64,000 nt of DNA from a virus (IMGVR_UViG_3300025121_000776:122856-186855), one strand, 5' to 3'; counted from the first letter of the stretch, positions 4,953-64,000 are shown. Translations and numbers: made by a program. Notes: a model not told the origin generated them from the letters alone.

Positions 4953-6072
4953 ATGGAAAAAAATAAAGCTAAATTATTTTACGAGCAAAAACAAAAAGAA
5001 CACTTCGAAAAACATGGTGTTTACTTCGATACTAATTCGAAGATGGGAGAAATTATTCAAGAGTTTCATGAACAAGAAATTAAAGAATGTGACACCGTTT
5101 ATGAATTTTTGTACAATAGTTGTATCCACGAAAGTGCTGCAGCAACCATGAGTATTCACCGCACTCAAAAGGGCGCTGAGATGGCCATGGAATTTCACAA
5201 GAGCGAAGCAAAGAAAGAGTGGGATGAATATAATAAACAATGCAAAGAGGCTGGTTTATCCACATTTGAATTTAAATTTGGAACACATGAATGGTGGGGA
5301 GTTCGACCCATAAAAATTTTAGAATAGAAACTTTTTTCATTTTTTCTCGTATAATATAGAAAATATACAACAATATGAAAATTTTAGAATCTTTTAGAAA
5401 TGGCTTTAAAGTTATTCCCCCTATCGCCTTTTTATGGAATGGAATTCTGTTTATTGCATTAGCGGCTTCGGCATTTATCAATACTGAAATAACTTTTACT
5501 GCTTATGCAATAATGTCAATGTTTGCTATTCCATTTATGTTTGAAGTACTGGAAAATAAAAAGTTCGTTCACCTTTGGATGCTTATAACTTTAACATTTT
5601 GGATTGTGTTTATCTCAGTTTCACTTACTGTTCTATTTTTTTTAATAGGTGAAACAGCCTTCTCAAAATTTAATAAAAAATTTAATAAAAAATTCTCCAA
5701 ACAATGAAACTTGTAAAAGAACCAGACAAGAAATTGTTTGAATATGCCTTTAAAAAAGAACGAAAATATACTTTTATTAATTTTAGGGGAAAACGACAAA
5801 CATATCACTTAGGTCATGAAGAATTATTATCAAATGGAAAATGTCCTATTTGCGATGTTCATTTAGTTGTTTGGCATGGAACTATAGATTCTGATATATC
5901 TTGTCCATCTTGTAATAGAAAAATTGAAAAAACAAAAGAATATAAATCTCTAAGAGAAAGTCTTAAAAATTCATTTTTTAATAGAGAACAAGAATTAAAA
6001 AAACTCAAGAAAAATTTAGAACGTGATAAAGCTCTTCTTAAGTTTATTGAAAATAAAGTAAATTCGTTTTAA
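4953..6072 (+). CDS. Three co-transcribed hypothetical proteins (4953-5327; 5375-5707 membrane; 5704-6072 Zn-ribbon)
   Basis: ORF track, tight spacing; last stop TAA forms the TAAC of an attC-like core. Confidence 0.65.
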
Positions 6073-6151
6073 CGATTGCGTGTAAAAACAGTGCGAAAAA
6101 TAGTTGATAAGTTAATTTGAAAACGAACATAAATTTTTAATATTTTACATT

Positions 6152-6496
6152 ATGAAAACACAAATAAAAAAAATTGCAAAATTAGAGGAAGAATATTTTG
6201 AATTGTACGAAAAGAAGTATGGCAAAGTAAAAATTGATAAAACTCAATATGAAAGACTAAATTTAAACGAAGGTGATTGGATATATTCCGATTATTTTAA
6301 AGAAGCCAATAAAGTAAAAAGAATACAGGGTGAATATATTGAGTTTTGCTTTGCAGAAAAGAATGGAATTAAAAGTGGCGTATTGAGTTTTGTTGAAAAC
6401 AAACAAGATACTGAAACACATAGATACGCAACGTTAAAGGAAATTGAAGCGAAATTAATAAAAGAAATTCAAAATATTAAAAATTTTCAACAATGA
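6152..6496 (+). CDS. Hypothetical protein lying inside an attC-like loop
   Basis: ORF track; flanked by the two arms of the 6070-6546 site. Confidence 0.7.
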   Translation: MKTQIKKIAKLEEEYFELYEKKYGKVKIDKTQYERLNLNEGDWIYSDYFKEANKVKRIQGEYIEFCFAEKNGIKSGVLSFVENKQDTETHRYATLKEIEAKLIKEIQNIKNFQQ

Positions 6497-6616
6497 ATTA
6501 TAATCGAAGCACTGAATTAGGCATGTTTTATAGCCAGTGTTATGCAGGCTTTAGCCCTTGCCGTTTTAATGATGCATAACGGGCACAGATAACAACAGTT
6601 TAAAACAAATTTAGAT

Positions 6617-6784
6617 ATGGAAAAAGAAACTAAAAAAATAGCAGAAAACATTGATAATGGCACTGAAAAATTATTGTTATCTGATGTTATCGGTAGTAAT
6701 TGGAACACTACTGATTATGTAAATCAAAAGGTAAAAAATATCATGTGGAATACTGATAGAAAAATTAAGAATTATTACCGATAA
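6617..6784 (+). CDS. Small cassette protein (55 aa) that starts in an attC loop
   Basis: Hand-translated MEKETKK...KLLLSDVIGS...NYYR; stop TAA lies in the core TAAC. Confidence 0.6.
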   Translation: MEKETKKIAENIDNGTEKLLLSDVIGSNWNTTDYVNQKVKNIMWNTDRKIKNYYR

Positions 6785-6891
6785 CTATTATATATCAGCA
6801 ATAATACCTATATTATAAAACATTCAGAGTCAACGCATAAGCATTGTGTTTTAAAGTGAATTTTTTCATTATATTTATTAAAAATTAGATA

Positions 6892-7593
6892 ATGAAAAAT
6901 AGAATTATATATGTTCTTATAGGTCCACCTGCCATCGGCAAATCCACCTGGATTAAAAACATGACAGACCCCGCAAATACCTTTGTTGTAAACAGAGATG
7001 AAATTGTAGAACAAGTGGCTGATTCTATTGGATTTACATACGATGATTTATATGTTTACCCACCAAATGATGCAGAGATAGGGAACATAGATGAAAAATA
7101 TGGGAAAGTTATAGCTTCACCAGAATATATATTTTGGAGCCCAACTGTTTTCGATAAAGTTTTACAGGCAAATAAAAGTATAAAAAACACCTTCTATCAA
7201 AAATTAGAAGATGCAAAAAACACAAATAAAAATGTTGTTATCGACCTTACTAATTTAAAAACAAATGAAAGATTAGATTGTCTCGATAGAGTCGGTCAGC
7301 CAGGAGATGTAAGAATTGCTGTTGTGTTTAAATTTATAAACAAAGAAAAAGTTATCAAAGCAGTAGCAAAAAAAAGAGCTGAAGCTACAAAAAGAATGGG
7401 TAAATCTAAAACTATTCCAGATTCAGCTTTTGATAGAATGATAAGCGGATACCAACCCCCAACTCCAGAAGAAAGATATGACAAAATAATTTATTCTGAT
7501 ACAATACCTCAACTTAAAAAATTAACTGGACTTAAAGAAGCAAAAAAAATTATCCGACAAATTATCAACGAAAAATTTAGTGAGCTATCATAG
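6892..7593 (+). CDS. P-loop kinase (AAA_33/polynucleotide kinase-like)
   Basis: Walker A GPPAIGKSTW, VNRDEIV, VVIDLTN. Confidence 0.75.
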   Translation: MKNRIIYVLIGPPAIGKSTWIKNMTDPANTFVVNRDEIVEQVADSIGFTYDDLYVYPPNDAEIGNIDEKYGKVIASPEYIFWSPTVFDKVLQANKSIKNTFYQKLEDAKNTNKNVVIDLTNLKTNERLDCLDRVGQPGDVRIAVVFKFINKEKVIKAVAKKRAEATKRMGKSKTIPDSAFDRMISGYQPPTPEERYDKIIYSDTIPQLKKLTGLKEAKKIIRQIINEKFSELS

Positions 7594-54797: not shown

Positions 54798-56234
54798 TTA
54801 TTTTTCAAACCATTTATAATTGTCAACTACTTCTATTATCCAATCACCATTACCTTCAAGTTCTTTGGCCTTAACTTCATCAGTAGTTACAACAGTTTCC
54901 CCAACTAACCCAGGTTTAGGAGTACACACAAAAGTTTTTGAGTTGACATTTTCTAATTCAGCAATACATTTATCAAGATATTCTTGGCCAGAGGGATTTA
55001 ATCCTGTTTTCAATTTTCTAAGTTTCTCTGATAAAGTAAGTTTATTAAGATTATCGATAATTATATAATCTGGAAATTCTTCGGTTGAGTTGTTTAGTTC
55101 AGTAATACATTTGTCAAGATAATCTTGATTTGCGGCTGGTCTGCCAGATTTCAATTGCTCAAATATTTCAGATAAATTAAATTTTGAAGGTGAATTCATT
55201 ATTTCTCTGTATCTTTCAGCTCTTTGTTGCCCAATGGATTTTTTGCTTGGAAATTTACCAATCTGTGTTAAATAATTGCCAGATAATTTAAAATCATTTG
55301 CTTGGCTCCATTCAGTAGTAACAATAATTTTTCCATCTGTACCAGTACTTGTTAAAACATAACATTCATCAGCTTCTAATGGGCGCAATGTTCCTTCATC
55401 ACAAACAGGTTCTAGTTCTTGGAACTCACACCATCTTCCGTGTCCTTTGGGAATTTTTGGGAAATTACATACAATAACATCATGAATTTTATCAGTAAAC
55501 CATATCATATAACTATTAGTTGGTTTATTGAAGGCTATTACTTTTCCCTCTTTATTTAAAGCTGGTGGATAATCTCCTCCTATACATTTCACCATTGAAT
55601 CGGTTTCGAACACCTGTTCAATTTGGCAAAAGTCTTCAACGCAAACACTATCTATATCGTATACTGTAGTATAATCGACATCCATTTCAGCATTTGGGTC
55701 TGACGGGCTTGATACTGGGACATGCAAATCGTACCTAACCTTGCTTTTTGTAAATTTAACTGCTTTAACAAGGCAATGCTCAATTTTATTCCCATTAAAG
55801 AAATTTAAATTTACCATTTCATCAATTGCATATCTGGAAGGATAAAGCGTATGAAGCTTTTTTGGAATTCCGCCCATATAATTGGTACATGACCAATTGA
55901 GAGTGTTATCTAATTTAGAATCTTCAACAACTTCTTCGTTGTAAATTGCAAATCTAATATGCCCTTCAAAGAGGCTTGTTTTGGAAATATACAAATGAGT
56001 AAATTTTCCATACGTATCTTCAAGTTTTTTAAATCCTTCGAGAGAAATGATGCTTAAATCTAAACTTCTGTAAGGAGAATTTTCTTTGGTAATTCTACCT
56101 TCTTTGTCAATAGAAACAGGACACCAGTTTACATACTCTACTTTAACTCCGTTTTCTACAAATTTTTGAATTTGTTCTTCAATTTGTTTTTTTATTGGTT
56201 TTTTCATGCTGTTCTTTGGCTGCCTATACGCCAA
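54798..56234 (-). CDS. Large hypothetical protein with internal duplication
   Basis: QDYLDKCITEL and QEYLDKCIAEL; flanked by near-identical terminators at 54733 and 56335. Confidence 0.65.
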   Translation of the reverse strand: MAYRQPKNSMKKPIKKQIEEQIQKFVENGVKVEYVNWCPVSIDKEGRITKENSPYRSLDLSIISLEGFKKLEDTYGKFTHLYISKTSLFEGHIRFAIYNEEVVEDSKLDNTLNWSCTNYMGGIPKKLHTLYPSRYAIDEMVNLNFFNGNKIEHCLVKAVKFTKSKVRYDLHVPVSSPSDPNAEMDVDYTTVYDIDSVCVEDFCQIEQVFETDSMVKCIGGDYPPALNKEGKVIAFNKPTNSYMIWFTDKIHDVIVCNFPKIPKGHGRWCEFQELEPVCDEGTLRPLEADECYVLTSTGTDGKIIVTTEWSQANDFKLSGNYLTQIGKFPSKKSIGQQRAERYREIMNSPSKFNLSEIFEQLKSGRPAANQDYLDKCITELNNSTEEFPDYIIIDNLNKLTLSEKLRKLKTGLNPSGQEYLDKCIAELENVNSKTFVCTPKPGLVGETVVTTDEVKAKELEGNGDWIIEVVDNYKWFEK

Positions 56235-57549
56235 AAGGTTTTAGTTAATGGTTTGTTTTTGTCAGTTGCCTTTACACTAACAGGTAAAGCAAAGATATAA
56301 AATAATTCTGAGAAAGTCAAGTTTTTAGCAAAAATAAAAATCCCACAGCTTTTATTTATTGTGGGGATGAATCATGTTCCAAGGCAGAGCCTTTTGTATT
56401 AAATTCACTTTAGAGTTAGCAGTAATAATTTTATCTTGCCGCCACACCTGAGTTTTTAACAATAGGGTTTTCAACAAAATCTTTTATGTTATCACCCAAA
56501 CACATAAGTTGTACTGCCATTAAATCACCATCAATGTTTTCGTTTGAAATTGCTATGATTTTTTCACACACTTTTTTTAAGTTGTCAAAATTTTCTGTTG
56601 TAAATGTTTTCATTTTATTTATGTTTTTTATATTTACGAGTATCCCACGCTCAAAAAGGATAAATTTACATACTGCTAATAAAGTGTAAAAAACATTAAA
56701 ACGATTTTTTACACCCAACCGTTAAAAATGTTTTCATATTGACCTTTGGCTTTTTTTTAACTAAATAATGCATTTACTCCCAAAAACATTAAACAACATA
56801 AAAATATTAAACAGGCAATTGCCAGCCAGCAGATTATTCCATATAAGCTTGACATTAATTGTTCTATCCAGTCTTCATCAAATGTGTTTAAAACTGAATT
56901 TCCCATGAAGTAAGCTCCTCCAAAAAATACTATAATTGCTAGTGTAGTAAAAAATGTTATCATAATTTTTGGTTTTTGTTTAATTTTAAATCATTTATCA
57001 AATCAGGAAGCCCTTCTTGTGAGATAAAATCTAAACGACTTTTTAGTTGAGCAACCTCTTTTTTTATGTTTATTTCTTTTTCGCAACAAACGCATTTCAT
57101 TGGGATAACCTTAATTGTAGTTGAAGTTGGTTTGCTCCTATGTTTGAAACTTTTGTGAATTTTTTTAGTTATTTTCATCTTCATTTTATTGGTTATACGA
57201 AATTCTCGCCCAAATGTTTTAAATAGTTCAATTTTTGTTCACAAATTCCGTAGCAATTGGTCTTTTTCATGATAAAACTATTTAATTATCAATTGTTTAA
57301 AAACACTTGTTGATATATAGGAGTTATGTGCCATTTTGCTGTCATTCAAGCCCTTTAACAACTCCACATGCACCCGTGCATATGTAATTTCGGGCTTTCA
57401 TTCCTTAAACGCAAAACGTGCCCCTCGCTCAAAAATCCCAACACACCACATAACATGGGCTTATGGCTATATTGTCTGTGTTTCATCTTTAGTTTCATTG
57501 GTTAATAATAAAAAAGAAAAGCCAACCCTCGTCAGCTTTTCAAGCTGTT

Positions 57550-57918
57550 TTATTTTACTTCTGACCATATATTCATGGCTACATAAGGAGTTCCTCTGTA
57601 TAATACAGTTATAAACTCTGATTTATCCCATGTGCTAACACAACTGAAATATTCTAACATATATGGCTCTGATATTATTTCTACTATTTCACCAGTTTTT
57701 CCGCTAAATCCTGCTAAATTTGATTTTTCGCCTGTTAAAAGATTTTTTTGTTGTGAGTTATCGCATAATATAACTTTTTTCCCAATTATACTATTTCTTC
57801 TATCTCCATATTTAGGCACAAAACATTGAGGAAATAATACTTCTAATACTTTTTTAGCTTCCGTAGAAGATTCTGATGCTAAAATTACTTTTTCTCTTAA
57901 AACTTCTAATTTTTCCAT
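57550..57918 (-). CDS. Hypothetical protein nested inside an attC-like loop
   Basis: Start MEKLEV; lies between stem arms at 57457 and 58002. Confidence 0.7.
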   Translation of the reverse strand: MEKLEVLREKVILASESSTEAKKVLEVLFPQCFVPKYGDRRNSIIGKKVILCDNSQQKNLLTGEKSNLAGFSGKTGEIVEIISEPYMLEYFSCVSTWDKSEFITVLYRGTPYVAMNIWSEVK

Positions 57919-58019
57919 TTTTTTAGTTTTTAATTTATTTTTAAAAATCCACCTTATTTTTCTTTTTTTACTCAGTTTTTCAATCAATATTTCGTTAATA
58001 CAGCCATAAGCCCCGTTCG

Positions 58020-59083
58020 TTAGCCACAATTAAAAGAGATTGCAGCTTCCATTCTATTGTATAAGTCTTCGCTAATCACAGGGTCATCCCAAGCACCAGC
58101 AGTAATGCTAAAAATCTCTTTTAACAGTTCGCTGTGCTGGCTAACAACAGATAAACGCAACTTTAATTTTTCGTTTTCTGCTTTTAATTTAGCTATTTCG
58201 TCTTGTAATTCTTCTTCGTATCCAAACATAATTTTGTTATTTAAAAATTAAAACTTCGTTTATCTGCAACCGTTATACACAATTTAATTTTTAGGAAGTT
58301 TGTATTCAACAATCATCCCACCATTTTCAGTGTGTGTTACTTTGGTTTCTATATCAGGATGGTGTGGGCATTGAAGTGGTTCTTCCAATCCACGTTCTTG
58401 TTTTTTGTGCCATCTAATAGATTCTGCTCGTGCATCATCAATTGTTGAATACAAACCGTGTTTAACAAGCGATTTTGCGTAATTTTCTACTTTTTCGTTA
58501 TTCATATATTTTGTGTTTTAAATTAAAAATTAAACTGTGTATAACAGCAAATATAAGAAATAAATTTTAAATTATCTAATTTTTTATAGGTAAAATTTAC
58601 TTCTCATATTTGCAAACGTTATAAGTAATAAAACAAAAATTATGATTGTTTATTTTCTTCTCTTTTCAATTCATCAGAAATCATAGTATTGATACATTCA
58701 CCAATCCATTTAATATTATCATCACCTATTTGCACTCTGTTTTTCAAATCATTTAAGATTTCTTCTTTTCTTTTTTCTAATTCTTGTTTTGTTGTTTTCA
58801 TAATTTCATTTATTTAATTTGTATAATTTTTGTTTTACATACTTATAACAACAAATAAAACACATTAAAACGATGTTTTATTTGCAGCCGTTAGGCATAA
58901 TAAAAATTATTGCCCACGCACAATTTTACGCTCATCTATTTCAGCAAAATCAGTTTCCGTATAACATGACCTGCCAATAAACCATTTTTTGTTTTCATAT
59001 TCTGCAACTGTCCATTTTCCTGGTTCTTTTGCCCATGTTATTGCAAATGTTTTTACCCAATAAAATCCGTTTTTCCTTTTCAT
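58020..59083 (-). CDS. Four small cassette genes (58020-58229, 58284-58505, 58640-58801, 58907-59083)
   Basis: One ORF per cassette; the last two were hand-translated (53 and 58 aa). Confidence 0.7.
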
Positions 59084-59339
59084 AAAAATAATTTTTACAG
59101 ATGCCTAACATGCAATATAAAACATACCTGTCGTGCATCTTTGATTAATACTATGTTTATTAATATCGTCATTCTAATTTAGTTCTGTGTTGGCACGTTT
59201 CATACACGCAACCGTTATAACCAATACCACATACCGAAAGCAATCACCATAATTACAATGATTACAATGATACATATCGCCAACCGTTAGCTGCAATTTA
59301 ATTTTAATTTGCCACCGCTCTTTGAATTTTTCAAACCCA

Positions 59340-59753
59340 TTAGAATTTTTTACCTCCATATTTAAATCCTCTTGTTTCATTGTATGCCATTTTTAATTTA
59401 ATATGGTTTTCAATATCAATATTTAATTTACCACATAAATCAAGCAATCTAATTATTGAATCAGCGATTTCATCTTCAAAAGAGTCTTTTATTTTTTCTT
59501 CGAATAACAATTTAAATTTAATATTATCTTTTTCACAACAAGGTATATCAGAATTGACATAATATAAAGTTTCATTTAAAACAGGTGTCAAATCAGCATA
59601 CTTATCTTTCCTAAATGCCTCAAATGCCTCTGATATTTCAGAATGAATTAACGCAATCCTTAAAGGTACATCATTATTGTCAAATCCAGCACTTACAACA
59701 AATTTATTAAATTGTTTACTTAATAAATTCAAACCTTTTACATTGTATTCCAT
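59340..59753 (-). CDS. MazG-like nucleotide pyrophosphohydrolase
   Basis: ALIHSEISEAFEAFRK, DEIADSIIRLLD, KMAYNETR...YGGKKF. Confidence 0.8.
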   Translation of the reverse strand: MEYNVKGLNLLSKQFNKFVVSAGFDNNDVPLRIALIHSEISEAFEAFRKDKYADLTPVLNETLYYVNSDIPCCEKDNIKFKLLFEEKIKDSFEDEIADSIIRLLDLCGKLNIDIENHIKLKMAYNETRGFKYGGKKF

Positions 59754-59764
59754 TTTTTATATTG

Positions 59765-62628
59765 TTAAATTAATACTAAAAATCCACCTAAATTAAACAG
59801 ACCCCACGCACAACCCAACGCACTAATCACACCACAAACCACAGCAATACTACCAAATAATTTATATCGGTTTATCGTTTTATTATCTTTACAAACAACT
59901 CCACACACACGCATTTCTGGTGGTCTAATTATCACTTTACTTTTATCAATTATTGGTTCAATCATATTTATAACATCGTGTATATTCAAGTTTGCATCAG
60001 CATTTGTGCATAATTCAAAGTTCCCATAAGCAAACCTGAAATATGCAAGCAACTGTTATTAAACAATTATTTTGAAAGTTCTTTTATATTTATTGAATTC
60101 AGGTTCATTGCCAAATTTTTCTTCCATTAAATTATTCAATCTAACTGGATTCACGTCATACGTAATTGGTATTAAATTCCATAATTTAGAACATCGTTCT
60201 CTTGTCTGTGTCAATGTTAGTTTATTCTCTTCTAATTCTTTAATGAGAATTGTTTGTTCAATTTCGTATTTTTCTAAATTTGTTTCTGTTTTCATATTTG
60301 TACTTTTTTAACTAAACCATAATAACAAATATATAACAAAAAAATTGAAATAAAAAAATTTCATAATATATTTGTAACCGTTAGCAATCAGTTATTGGTT
60401 TTGCTTTTATATTACAGGTTTCATCTAAACAGTGCATTCCCTTAAAATTACAAGAGTCTTGCACTCTGTAAGGACACCCAGCAACCGACACCCCAACGCT
60501 TGGAATTGCTATCGCTACAGGTATAGCAAATAAATTTACTAAGTCCCATCGTAATTTTCCGCATATTTCCCCTGTTAATTTTATGTAATCAAGATTGTCG
60601 TTATCAATTTTTACATCACTTAATAATAAGTGTACTTCTTGTTCTGTCATATTTATCAATTTATTAGTTATTAATCCGTAAAATTCTGCGGCTCGTTAGC
60701 GTTCAGTTTGCTTGAAGTCGCTAATATTATCACCATGTCCACATGTACAGCAAATAACCTGTATATCTTTCGTTTTACACTTAGGGCAAACCACAACGCT
60801 AACATCGTGTATAGGTAATAATTTTAAAAAAAGTTCTTCCAATTCAGTAGCAACGCTCGGCGCATCTGCTGCATCGCATTCAACGTCTTTTCTTGGTATC
60901 TTACTTACCACTTTATATATTTGTTCCCAAACCTCGCTTCTTTGCATTTTGTTACTTTGTTCCATTTTATTTAGTTTATCTGTTAATACTTTTTAAAATT
61001 ACATACTATACACAAGTCCATTATATGTAATTTAATTATCCTCCGATTTAACTCTACTACTTATTCCAATATTGTGTCCCGCAATTGGATTCCAACCTAT
61101 TTTAGAATATGAGCCATCGTCTATTTCAACAGTTGCCAAGCCTGTTTCATTATCATATTCTATTACTTTACCTACTACTGTTTCTTTTACATTCACATTT
61201 TTACCAACTAAATTTAGCAAATTCTTTTCTAATTGTACTGTCATTTTCATATTCTAAATTTTAAGGTTTTTTATTTCAAATTAATTTGTTTGGTCTTTTT
61301 AATGTAATTTCATTAATAATATTTTTATCAGTTACTTCAATTAACTTATCAAATTCAACATAATCAAAATATGTTGAACCTTTTTCGTGTTCGCAGAAAA
61401 AACAACCGCTACTTGTCCCAAATGTATTCCACTCGTGATAATAATCACCATCACACTTTACAACTAATTTATTCTCAAATTTTCCTATTATTTCCATATC
61501 AATATTTTTTAGTTTATAATTATTTTATACAAAGATACTAATTTAATTCGATATAATCAATATTCACAACGCTATTTTTAAAAACTTTTTGCTAGTGTTC
61601 CAATTAAGCACTTGTGTAAGCAATAGTTGTATTTGCAACCGTTATGTTTAATTAGATTATTGTTTTGAATTTTTTATTTCTAAACCGTTTTCTTTAAGAA
61701 TTTTTATAACTTCATACCAATCATATTCCATTGGTGGTGTAAAATTACAATCTATACTTAATTTTCCCACATCAGACATTTTCCCACTTTTTTGTCTTGG
61801 TTCGCAAACAAAAATTTCACCTTCATAATAAAGTTTCAAGTGTGGAAAAATTCTTTCCAAACGTTCTACTAAAATTCTTAATTCACTATCCATATATTTT
61901 TATTTTTATTTGTAGAACAATAATTTAACTAAAACGACAATATATTTGCAACCGTTAGTACTCATTTAAAGAGCGGATGTACTCGTCTAATTTCTTTTCC
62001 TCTTCAATGTGCTTAGGTATTGCCAACGAAGCACATTTTCCACAGATATAGTAATCTACTTCACAACCACACTCATCATTTGTATATCCTGCCGCATAAC
62101 TACCTTGCTGCGGGTTATCACAACAGTCACAAGTATCATCAAATTCGCACCTCACATAATATTTCTCAATTTCTTCCTGAGTAAATAAAACGGGTGCTAA
62201 CACAGTATTAGCATTATTGCTTGTGGGTTTTTGTACTTTATTTTTCATATTAAAATTTGTGTTAAGTTAAACTTTTCTGTTTCAAATTAAAGGCAACAAA
62301 TGCCAATACTTCACCGTTATATTTAATTTTAAGAATGTTTTGGTTTTTCATCAGTTAAATACTGAAATTTTTCATTTCCAAATCTATCTTTAATCATAAC
62401 TTTTCCATCAACATCTATCTCGCCAAAGGTTAATTTATTGTTGTAATAAGTTGATGTATATATTTTTTTATCTTCATCATTTCCGTGACGACATTCTACA
62501 CGACTTGTCCCATCATCCCACAATAAAATTCCAATGGTATATGAACAATTTGGAAATCGTTGTAGAATATCATTTTTAACTAAGTCTATTTGTTTCTGTA
62601 TTTTTTTCATTTGTACTGTCATTTTCAT
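59765..62628 (-). CDS. Small cassette genes (59765-, 60059-60295, 60381-60659, 60696-60965, 61032-61250, 61276-61497, 61657-61893, 61955-62248, 62329-62628)
   Basis: ORF track; boundaries coincide with attC-like cores. Confidence 0.7.
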
Positions 62629-62703
62629 ATTCTAAATTTTAAGGTTTTGTTTCAAATTAATTTCTTTTAACGTAATTAAATGTGTTCGTTGGGTGCAATT
62701 GAA

Positions 62704-63495
62704 CTACCACCATAATGACATAAAAATTTTTGGAAATTTGTCTAATCCTTCACTCAATTGCTTTTTTTCTTCTTTGGTAAAGATGCAACTGCCGTTATCT
62801 CTTGCAGCTAATTCCATTGCTTTTAAAAAGCAATCTATATCATTTACCAATTCTTCATCACGTTTTAAAAAATCATTCGCAATTTCTTGATACCTCTTTA
62901 ATCTTGGGATAATAAAATTTGCCATAGTATCTCTCAATGACCATGTTTCGCTATCATCAAAACCTCTTTCCAGTCTCTGCTTTTTAAAATCAACTTCCCT
63001 TTTATCGTCTTTGTCAGTAAGGGAAAAGCAAATGTTTGGAATGCCCAAATGCTTATAATCACATTCATTACATTCAACACCATTCCAATGTAATGGGCAA
63101 TGCTGTGGTTTTTCAAAGTCGCAAACCAGATTTGTAACATCACCTAAATTTGCATTGTCAGTGGTTTCAATTGTAGGTTCTTCCAAACCCCCTACGTTAT
63201 CTGCTATCATCATAGCAAAATTGCATACATCTGCGCACTCTAATGCAATTTCTTTCGGGCTTAATCTTTGTAATATCGCATCATATAATTCATCAGCTTC
63301 TTCAAGCATTCTCTTACGTAGCCATTCCACACTGCAATTATCCCATTTTCGTCCTATGCCATCTGCATTCATCACTTTACAATCCTTGTGTTTGTTTTTA
63401 TCTAATTTATATTGCATTAATTTTGCAATATTTACTATTTGTTCCATAATGGTTAATTTATATGCAAAATTATAAAAAAATTTCATTAAAAGCAA
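62704..63495 (-). CDS. Two-part protein: N-terminal MazG-like/dNTP diphosphohydrolase domain fused to an unrelated C-terminal module
   Basis: WLRKRMLEEADEL...LECADVCNFAMMIAD; attC-like half-site at 63135 in mid-gene. Start probably MEQIVN. Confidence 0.6.
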   Translation of the reverse strand: MLLMKFFYNFAYKLTIMEQIVNIAKLMQYKLDKNKHKDCKVMNADGIGRKWDNCSVEWLRKRMLEEADELYDAILQRLSPKEIALECADVCNFAMMIADNVGGLEEPTIETTDNANLGDVTNLVCDFEKPQHCPLHWNGVECNECDYKHLGIPNICFSLTDKDDKREVDFKKQRLERGFDDSETWSLRDTMANFIIPRLKRYQEIANDFLKRDEELVNDIDCFLKAMELAARDNGSCIFTKEEKKQLSEGLDKFPKIFMSLWW

Positions 63496-64000
63496 GAAAT
63501 TCTCACAAATACTTGATTAATTAAAAAATTATAAATATCTTTGCGCATTAAATACATAAAATTATGGTTCTGAGTAAAAAACACGGTTTAAATATTTCTG
63601 ATGATGCTAAATTATTAAAACTTGCATCTGAATCTTTTAGTGATGGTGATTTTATATGTCCAGAGTGTGGAGAAACGATATTTGAATATATATCTGACAC
63701 ACATGTTGAATGTGATACGTGTGGGCATGTGTTATTAAATACGTATAAAAATTTTTAAATTAATTGGCTTCGCCTTTGGCCTTTTTTATAGAAAGTATTT
63801 AATTTTTATTAGGTTTCCAATTTTTTATAATATTTGTAAAATATTTACTATCTTCACTATTAACAAAATTATACATTCCATTATTTGTCATTAAACCATC
63901 TTCTACAAGTTCATTTGCTAAATCTATTTTTTTAAGATGTTCTTTTTTTGTCAATCCTTCGTGACGTGATTTGGCGCACATTTCTGCAAATTTTTCTATT

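Follow-up and report, generated by a model that had tools for sequence, protein, structure and literature searches.

Integrons are the textbook device by which genes are captured one at a time. To our knowledge, they are held to depend on a domain specific to the integron integrase IntI and to belong to bacteria and, as recently recognised, also to archaea. The locus compared with them here lies in a stretch of 64,000 nucleotides (IMGVR_UViG_3300025121_000776:122856-186855, hereafter the window, to whose full length all coordinates refer), which is the last 64 kb of a linear phage fragment of the IMG/VR database (186,855 nt, estimated to be 57% complete). Between 56.4 and 63.5 kb the window carries about 20 small genes, every one on the minus strand, and the array in this large phage amounts to about 15 small gene cassettes in a row. 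Judged from its sequence, the region is very probably a gene-cassette platform of integron-like type, carried by a phage, from which the recombinase has been lost. The closest database relative of the phage is a 462-kb uncultured phage, LR756500.1 (L001 among the loci compared below).

Integrons and the arrays of this phage family share a one-directional array that has, at one end, a tyrosine recombinase gene next to an attI-like site, and imperfect hairpins with AAC/GTT cores, where the crossover falls at the GTT core and the start of each cassette complements its own R'' side. In both, one strand folds better and is the bottom strand relative to the recombinase gene. Site families repeated within one array (as in sedentary chromosomal integrons), ORFan cargo and arrays devoid of integrase (clusters of attC sites lacking integron integrases, CALINs) are likewise common to the two. 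The phage family differs in its enzyme, which scores about equally on XerA, XerD and IntI models and lacks the IntI-specific insertion, and in its sites, which have spacers of 1 versus 4 nt, two fixed G.T wobbles and a 3-nt bulge. Its genes are read towards the recombinase with the hairpin 5' of the gene, and some of them start or lie in the loop. Whereas a classical cassette holds a promoterless open reading frame (ORF) directed towards attC and expressed from Pc, all ORFs are here on the opposite strand, with the hairpin upstream.

Promoter-early stem-loop (PeSL) motifs of T4-type phages offer a second comparison (PMC2839356, PMC4122927). These are also conserved stem-loops between small, variable and mostly ORFan genes of a hyperplastic region, in which single genes are gained, lost and reshuffled. 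However, PeSLs are direct repeats acting by homology, without dedicated recombinase, attI, core-exact junctions or complementary bracketing flanks, whereas in the family described here the attI and attC junctions share little beyond GTTA and, of 56 informative loci, 55 show linkage to the recombinase. Finally, classical attC models detected CALINs in virulent phages, one of them a Polaribacter phage (Qi et al. 2023, PMC9892861). They too are attC-type clusters without integrase in lytic phages; they differ in comprising 2-4 sites and in having been read as bacterial integron components, and the paper mentions no phage-specific recombinase, attI or reversed cassettes for them (PMC9892861). A literature search on the recombinase-array system returned no description of it, the nearest reports being Qi et al. 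2023 and the PeSL papers; reference 43 of a 2026 jumbo-phage review was set aside, as it deals with transduced genomic islands, a different system.

The family recombinase and its attI-like site

Further arrays were collected by scanning IMG/VR with ATTTGCAACCGTTA, which gave many of the same kind; LR756500.1 also has an array. A custom site finder run on 17 arrays provided 83 adjacent site pairs. Two array-bearing contigs have a PF00589 match directly beside the array. A protein search of IMG/VR with the family recombinase returned 80 loci, from which 71 non-identical loci at 45% identity or more were kept. The carriers are phages of Bacteroidota-type hosts, and many of the contigs exceed 100 kb.

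The linkage between recombinase and sites is strongly one-sided, with 320 sites in 335 kb upstream of the recombinase versus 7 in 417 kb on the other side (71 loci), and a site is present within 2.5 kb in 55 of the 56 loci whose upstream sequence covers 1.5 kb or more. Of the sites in the related arrays examined, 435 are on one strand versus 23 on the other. Homologues below 40% identity (n=5) have one site in total, four of them being without any. Homologues at 37-40% identity occur in cultured flavobacterial phages, namely Polaribacter phages Freya_1 to Freya_10 and Cellulophaga phage Ingeline. The recombinase regions of Freya_10, Freya_1 and Freya_6 (L202-L204) are 99.6-100% identical, and these three phages have different small genes, amounting to 0.4-4 kb, immediately before the recombinase, the identity resuming after ..AAC|ACCCCTATAAC. 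On contig IMGVR_UViG_3300042879_005260 (L016 and L024) arrays flank the recombinase on both sides, since a dense 19-site array starts about 5.7 kb downstream of the gene, besides the upstream array.

The family recombinase is an Xer/IntI-like tyrosine recombinase of 260-270 aa (268-271 aa in the proteins analysed) with PF00589 and PF13495, in which the motifs expected to hold the catalytic residues (GLR, HxLRH and a C-terminal IYTH) were recognised by eye. Its scores (bits, followed by the curated cut-off) are 184/220 for XerA, 156/330 for XerD, 150/335 for XerC and 151/265 for the integron integrase model TIGR02249, to which the match is split into two separate stretches. It is thus below all curated cut-offs, those of the Xer family included, and it is found beside cassette arrays, not at a dif site. 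Among solved structures XerA (4a8e) is the best match, and the part that aligns with IntI4 (2a3v) reaches no further than residue 181. Because the enzyme lacks the IntI-specific insertion, the system is not a classical integron. A preliminary description of the region had proposed an IntI-like recombinase as the driver and a search for an IntI with the I2 insertion; a tyrosine recombinase was indeed found, in 71 loci, but it is a short Xer-like enzyme without that insertion, which the proposed search would have missed, and is deleted in the window.

These scores bear on a first alternative, in which the region would be a classical integron array (CALIN) that was acquired from a host IntI system or is acted on by a host IntI, as in Qi et al. 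2023. The AAC/GTT cores and hairpin sites agree with it, as do the GTTAGGC at 58890, which conforms to the GTTRRRY consensus, and the reports that CALINs exist in a virulent Polaribacter phage and that IntI1 recombined some phage attC sites (PMC9892861). We consider it very unlikely, given that the enzyme linked in 71 loci is not IntI (on both the TIGR02249 score and the 2a3v alignment), that the genes run in the direction opposite to classical cassettes, that the hairpin spacers are asymmetric (1 vs 4 nt) with fixed wobbles, that the interruption between core and hairpin is a 3-nt bulge in the folds instead of single extrahelical bases, and that the window itself holds the remnant of an Xer-like gene.

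In relatives, the recombinase start is preceded at 45-90 nt by a conserved element, ..TTGATATATnATA-GTTA; it is devoid of a hairpin and is directly followed by a typical cassette flank. It is a cassette-insertion site adjoining the recombinase gene, and as such analogous to known attI sites without being homologous to them in sequence. Two features of the window correspond to this arrangement, and both were absent from the preliminary description:

57304..57326, plus strand: attI-like site, CACTTGTTGATATATAGGA-GTTA; the first cassette follows the GTTA at 57323-57326
57190..57270, minus strand: tyrosine recombinase gene remnant, ATG at 57270; about 19 recognisable codons, MKKTNCYGICEQKLNYL...

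The attI-like site aligns with the conserved ..GGTGTTGATATATnATA-GTTA element of intact platforms, so that position 57323, previously listed as an ordinary core, is instead the attI junction. Relative to intact genes, the remnant has a 16-nt gap followed by an early stop, and the other ~235 codons are gone. In tblastn searches with 68 family recombinases, 57270-57214 corresponds to residues 1-21 at 63-68% identity; the remnant DNA aligns with L135, L140, L145 and L152, and its blastn match to L031 has E=3e-9. As a candidate enzyme, the 469-aa ORF at 54798..56207 was rejected: it has no Pfam family and is unlike the 478-aa ORF beside the array of LR756500.1.

The window therefore contains an integrase-less, partly eroded array. 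Flanks and sites are intact in the five cassettes closest to attI (57324-59220); further from attI, the sites are progressively without arms, cores or complementarity, and the distal half is eroded. As the recombinase is deleted here, present-day mobility would require a recombinase in trans, supplied by a relative infecting the same cell or encoded in the unsequenced 43% of the genome.

Cassette flanks and exchange at the core

The sites have the general form X'-TAAC-n-[stem-loop-stem]-nnnn-GTTA-X on the plus strand, which reads TAA-C-GGTT-GCAAAT... on the coding strand. The form TAAC-hairpin-GTTA proposed earlier was recovered as TAAC-N0-2-stem-loop-stem-N4-6-GTTA, with TAAC/GTTA cores, a hairpin and a strand asymmetry that stems from a 4-nt vs 1-nt spacer and fixed G.T wobbles. 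The window contains the following:

57451-58022, 58142-58275, 58542-58621, 58846-58893, 60323-60383 and 62198-62319, plus strand: TAAC...GTTA hairpin sites
56677-56724, plus strand: hairpin site with TAAT replacing TAAC

Nine pairs of complementary cores had been described as bracketing the cassettes; all are present at their positions, and together they are far above chance. Across the 186,855 nt there are 1714 GTTA...TAAC pairs spaced 40-600 nt apart, only 21 of which have at least 4 further complementary bases, and 7 of these 21 fall in 57.3-60.8 kb of the window, which is 1.9% of the genome. The pair 58272/58545, around gene 58284..58505, extends to 22 nt with 95% complementarity. Of the 11 genomic copies of the motif AACCGTTA, 7 fall between 56.7 and 62.0 kb. 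A search for TAACGGTTGCAAA with 3 mismatches across the window was uninformative (42 matches vs 31 expected); its signal resides in the matches with 0-1 mismatch, all of them inside 58.2-62.0 kb.

The same signature was measured in the related arrays. In 62 of the 83 adjacent pairs, the 6 nt after GTTA and the 6 nt that precede TAAC in the following site are complementary at 5 or more of 6 positions, compared with 4.4% of non-adjacent pairs and 3 of 112 comparisons between the two flanks of one site. Such complementarity is the expected product of a crossover at one hairpin core, each unit starting with the partner of its own far end. A chance origin of the core pairs is ruled out by the genome-wide count and this adjacency test. 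The possibility that each gene is instead an invertible or transposon-like unit with its own terminal inverted repeats (GTTA-X / X'-TAAC) draws on the inverted repeat of 10-22 nt that brackets every intact unit. It is extremely improbable: gene orientation is uniform, the sites of related arrays are distributed 435 to 23 by strand, and outside the core each unit has repeats of its own, which leaves no common transposase site. In addition, relatives differ by insertions and replacements at GTTA and not by inversions.

Insertion, replacement and duplication of cassettes at GTTA are observed directly in these relatives. The recombinase 5' ends of L145, L146 and L148 are 100% identical, and the sequences differ from the base directly after the attI GTTA; the same holds for L151/152, L161/162 and L164/165, and between L145 and L147 the divergence starts at the following GTTA. 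L146 differs from L148 by one additional 0.8-kb cassette at attI, of the form GTTA-TGTACA...TGTACA-TAAC-hairpin-AACC-GTTA. Another cassette is located after attI in L124 and after attC in L123, and the two copies are identical from the base after GTTA. The natural insertion events fix the composition of a cassette, in which the hairpin moves with the gene on its 5' side. In the sequences inspected, attI and attC sites share little beyond GTTA, which excludes homologous recombination as the main process and, by inference, also a double-strand exchange needing an overlap of 6-8 bp. The crossover thus takes place at the GTT(A) core, with the cassette start pairing with its own R'', the exact bond within GTTA being beyond the resolution of sequence comparison.

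The hairpin at 58542-58621 gives the complementary view from the side of a single site. It is found in at least 10 other contexts, at 83-93% identity, ending at TAAC and GTTA; the right flanks differ in 10 of 10 copies and one left flank is common to 6, as predicted by a crossover at R'. Comparison of cassette order with relatives, as had been advised, revealed shared pieces scrambled between the window and LR756500.1, besides the gain at GTTA in relatives. Relative to LR756500.1, cassette 4 sits between the hairpin 58542-58621 and GTTAGGCAT. Linkage, attI-like site and insertion polymorphisms together bear out the proposal that the plus strand is the top strand of attC and that the genes are inverted with respect to classical cassettes.

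The hairpin stems of 393 unique sites have, on the top strand, 497 A.C versus 83 G.T mismatches, and in 164 of 203 pairs the X (flank) stem has A.C at its position 7. The claim that stem mismatches become G.T wobbles on the minus (coding) strand is upheld by these family-wide counts for both stem types. The base after TAAC is G in 95% of sites and the base before GTTA is T in 97%, which may represent a second fixed wobble with a 3-nt bulge; computed folds of the window sites have this wobble-plus-3-nt-bulge closure on the minus strand. In the 65 members of the 48-nt site family with loop CATTAAAACGA, the stems covary so that pairing is kept. With respect to the recombinase gene, it is the bottom strand that folds. 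That the bottom strand folds better, as had been put forward, holds for individual window sites at 58142, 58542, 58846 and 59106, and fails at 60323, 62198 and 56675, where it is equal or slightly worse; clear strand bias appears only in the family-wide counts.

The same hairpins could act at the RNA level only, as promoter plus terminator, as RNase III-type stems, or by a pairing of 5' and 3' ends that protects mRNAs, with shuffling by homologous recombination as for PeSLs. The better-folding strand is the sense strand and has many G.U-compatible positions. Moreover, TATATTTG in the 3' arm of some hairpins (58542-58621 and 60323-60383, for instance) matches, at a fixed distance from GTTA, TAnnTTTG, the -7 promoter box known from Bacteroidota. 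As with PeSLs, the hairpins are conserved while the genes between them vary (PMC2839356, PMC4122927), and one breakpoint falls within a gene. In the wider family, however, only TATA at -10 to -7 is conserved, TTTG at -6 to -3 being present in about half of the sites, and no -33 TTG box at fixed spacing is seen in the family logo. The one-sided linkage of a tyrosine recombinase, the hairpin-less attI-like site and the junctions exactly after GTTA with little other shared sequence would all be left unexplained, and we regard a purely regulatory origin as unlikely. A regulatory role may well coexist with recombination; it is not the whole story.

Several observations count against an integron-like platform, or against its activity in this phage. 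The enzyme lacks the IntI domain considered necessary for recognition of folded attC. PF00589 is absent across the 187-kb fragment (~57% of the genome), which leaves activity in this phage unproven; the array-bearing complete genome G002 (362 kb) and LR756500.1 are also without recombinase, so that arrays persist in the absence of the enzyme. The folding strand is the mRNA sense strand, and the G.U-compatible bias could therefore partly reflect RNA structure. At the level of single sites, the 7-nt pair 60055/60320 is no better than chance, neither strand of site 59106-59220 folds better than shuffled sequences, several window sites fold poorly, and those past ~60.7 kb are degenerate. Flanks of the type GTTATAAGTA / TACTTATAAC are found around unrelated genes and next to at least 5 hairpin types, a pattern which is not explained by crossover at R' alone and suggests an extra exchange at the TAAC side or within flanks. 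Finally, in the comparison with LR756500.1 a breakpoint lies inside the coding region of gene 60381..60650, and ordinary recombination hence acts here too: window 60517-60673, covering the leader and 5' half of the gene, is 93% identical to L001 10309-10465, the 3' half is unrelated, and on the other side the identity stops just after the hairpin-less GTTA 60667.

Proposed functioning of the platform

For an integron-like platform, the features above lead to the following model. The family platform consists of a recombinase gene at one array end, co-directional with the cassettes and preceded by an attI-like site ending in GTTA. On the non-coding (plus) strand, a cassette reads TTA-X...gene (reversed)...X'-TAAC-n-hairpin-nnnn-G, each gene carrying its own attC-like hairpin on its 5' side, and X and X' would be the halves of an extended stem that closes in the excised circle. 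By analogy with integrons, the recombinase would act on the folded minus (bottom) strand, cutting TAA|C (G|TTA on the top strand), and would insert circular cassettes at attI and excise or reshuffle them between attC sites; single-strand chemistry and circular intermediates are thus expected. The hairpin may in addition have a promoter function. A broader proposal, which we hold tentatively and rate somewhat short of probable, is that a minimal Xer-like enzyme without the IntI insertion performs integron-type recombination of folded single-stranded DNA hairpins, either as an independent invention or as an ancestral form, and that the 5' hairpin doubles as promoter or leader, the cassettes being self-expressing and traded among large phages of Bacteroidota-type hosts.

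Such a platform would bring integron logic into large phages of the lytic type, with a shorter enzyme and reversed cassettes, and would provide a concrete mechanism for the build-up and turnover of blocks of small ORFan early genes in phages of Bacteroidota-type hosts, many of which have very large genomes. It would also constitute a natural test of the protein features truly needed for recombination of folded hairpins, and the compact enzyme and its sites might serve as a tool. The window shows how integrase-less arrays arise, with a recombinase stub and a site decay that grows with the distance from attI.

Units of the array and neighbouring features

The units are listed below in order from the attI-like site, followed by those located beyond the recombinase remnant.

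57324..58022, plus strand: cassette 1, flanks GTTATGTG / CACATAAC (57447-57454)
57451-58022: attC-like site of cassette 1, 17-nt arms 57457-57473 / 57997-58013, loop of 523 nt
57550..57918, minus strand: gene of cassette 1, in the loop, 122 aa
58020..58275, plus strand: cassette 2, flanks GTTAGCCA / TGGCTAAC; attC-like site 58142-58275 with a 25-bp stem
58020..58229, minus strand: gene of cassette 2, 69 aa; start inside the loop, stop on the core TTA
58273..58621, plus strand: cassette 3, flanks GTTATACACAATTT / AAACTGTGTATAAC, 22 nt at 95% complementarity
58542-58621: attC-like site of cassette 3, 23-bp stem, folding z-score -6.6 on the minus strand
58284..58505, minus strand: gene of cassette 3, 73 aa
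58619..58893, plus strand: cassette 4, flanks GTTATAAGTA / TACTTATAAC
58846-58893: attC-like site of cassette 4, 48 nt, conserved loop CATTAAAACGA
58640..58801, minus strand: gene of cassette 4, 53 aa
58891..59220, plus strand: cassette 5, flanks GTTAGGCAT / ATGCCTAAC; site 59106-59220 ends in GCAACC-GTTA
58907..59083, minus strand: gene of cassette 5, 58 aa
59221..60058, plus strand: eroded stretch, extra hairpin-less AACC-GTTA core at 59285, flanks non-complementary
59340..59753 (137 aa, MazG-like) and 59765..59965 (66 aa): genes of the eroded stretch; weak site 59971-60058
60056..60383, plus strand: cassette, attC-like site 60323-60383, just 3 complementary bases beyond GTTA
60059..60295, minus strand: gene of the preceding cassette, 78 aa
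60381..61025, plus strand: two units with decayed sites
60381..60650: gene, 89 aa, between GTTA 60380 and GTTA 60667
60696..60965: gene, 89 aa, flanks GTTAGCGTT / AACGCTAAC (60795)
60807-60830 / 60990-61013: 24-nt arms enclosing the 5' half of gene 60696..60965
61026..62319, plus strand: distal units, genes 61032..61250, 61276..61497, 61657..61893 and 61955..62248
61635-61644 and 61948-61957: GCAACC-GTTA cores, the 5' hairpin arm being lost at 61948-61957
62198-62319: site enclosing the start of gene 61955..62248
62320..63486, plus strand: last units, genes 62329..62628 (99 aa) and 62704..63486 (260 aa)
~62668-62690: degenerate site TAAC..GTTG, between genes 62329..62628 and 62704..63486
63487-63563: end of the array, divergent intergenic region
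56415..57196, plus strand: cassette-like units beyond the recombinase remnant, three genes
56431..56613: gene bracketed by GTTAGCAGTA (56415) / TACTGCTAAT (56671)
56677-56724: 48-nt hairpin site, matching L103 at 96% and L106 at 86%
56757..56963 and 56960..57184: genes following hairpin 56677-56724, up to GTTA 57193

The site of cassette 5 (59106-59220) belongs to a family with two copies in L039. Genes 58020..58229, 60696..60965 and 61955..62248 start inside a hairpin loop, and gene 57550..57918 lies wholly within the loop closed by the 17-nt arms. Stop codons had been said often to use the TTA of the core, which is the case for four genes, those ending at 58020, 60381, 60696 and 61955.

The cargo of the window array consists almost entirely of ORFans. 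Pfam searches on 20 window proteins returned sub-threshold matches only (MazG-like, and coiled-coil noise), and tblastn of the window cassette proteins against ~200 related loci detected almost no homologues; consequently no window cassette was found in a second context with clean junctions, and the evidence for mobility comes from relatives. Rfam gave zero matches on 55.5-64 kb. Gene 59340..59753, whose protein match to MazG is the sub-threshold one, resembles the MazG gene of Cellulophaga phage phi14:2 at the DNA level, and gene 62704..63486 has no match in Pfam.

Four minor observations concern this region and its surroundings. A GTTA-X / X'-TAAC repeat brackets the 3' third only of a Cys-rich small ORF, both in L001 (9070-9166, 16 nt, perfect) and in the window (60695-60803, 9 nt), and the repeat sequences differ between the two phages. 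Between the 469-aa ORF (54798..56207) and the first cassette-like unit, a stem-loop CCCACAGC-TTTTATTTAT-TGTGGGG is present at 56330-56370 and may be a terminator marking the edge of the variable region. A mini-array of two cassettes in the opposite orientation, with genes on the plus strand, occupies 6071-6800; it consists in order of a TAAC-GATT-stem around gene 6152..6496, GTTATGCA/TGCATAAC, a site at 6577-6689 and flanks GTTATCGGTA/TACCGATAAC around gene 6617..6784, and closes with TAAC-TATTATATAT, the coding-strand reading of the attI-like motif. It is not followed by a recombinase, the next gene (6892..7593) encoding a P-loop protein. Lastly, a 5' leader with the first codons (TTAATTTGAAA..CCTTAAAATTTAGAAT-ATGAAAATGACAGTACAA, translated MKMTVQ) is duplicated at 61241-61290 and 62610-62660, and is common to two otherwise different genes, 61032..61250 and 62329..62628.

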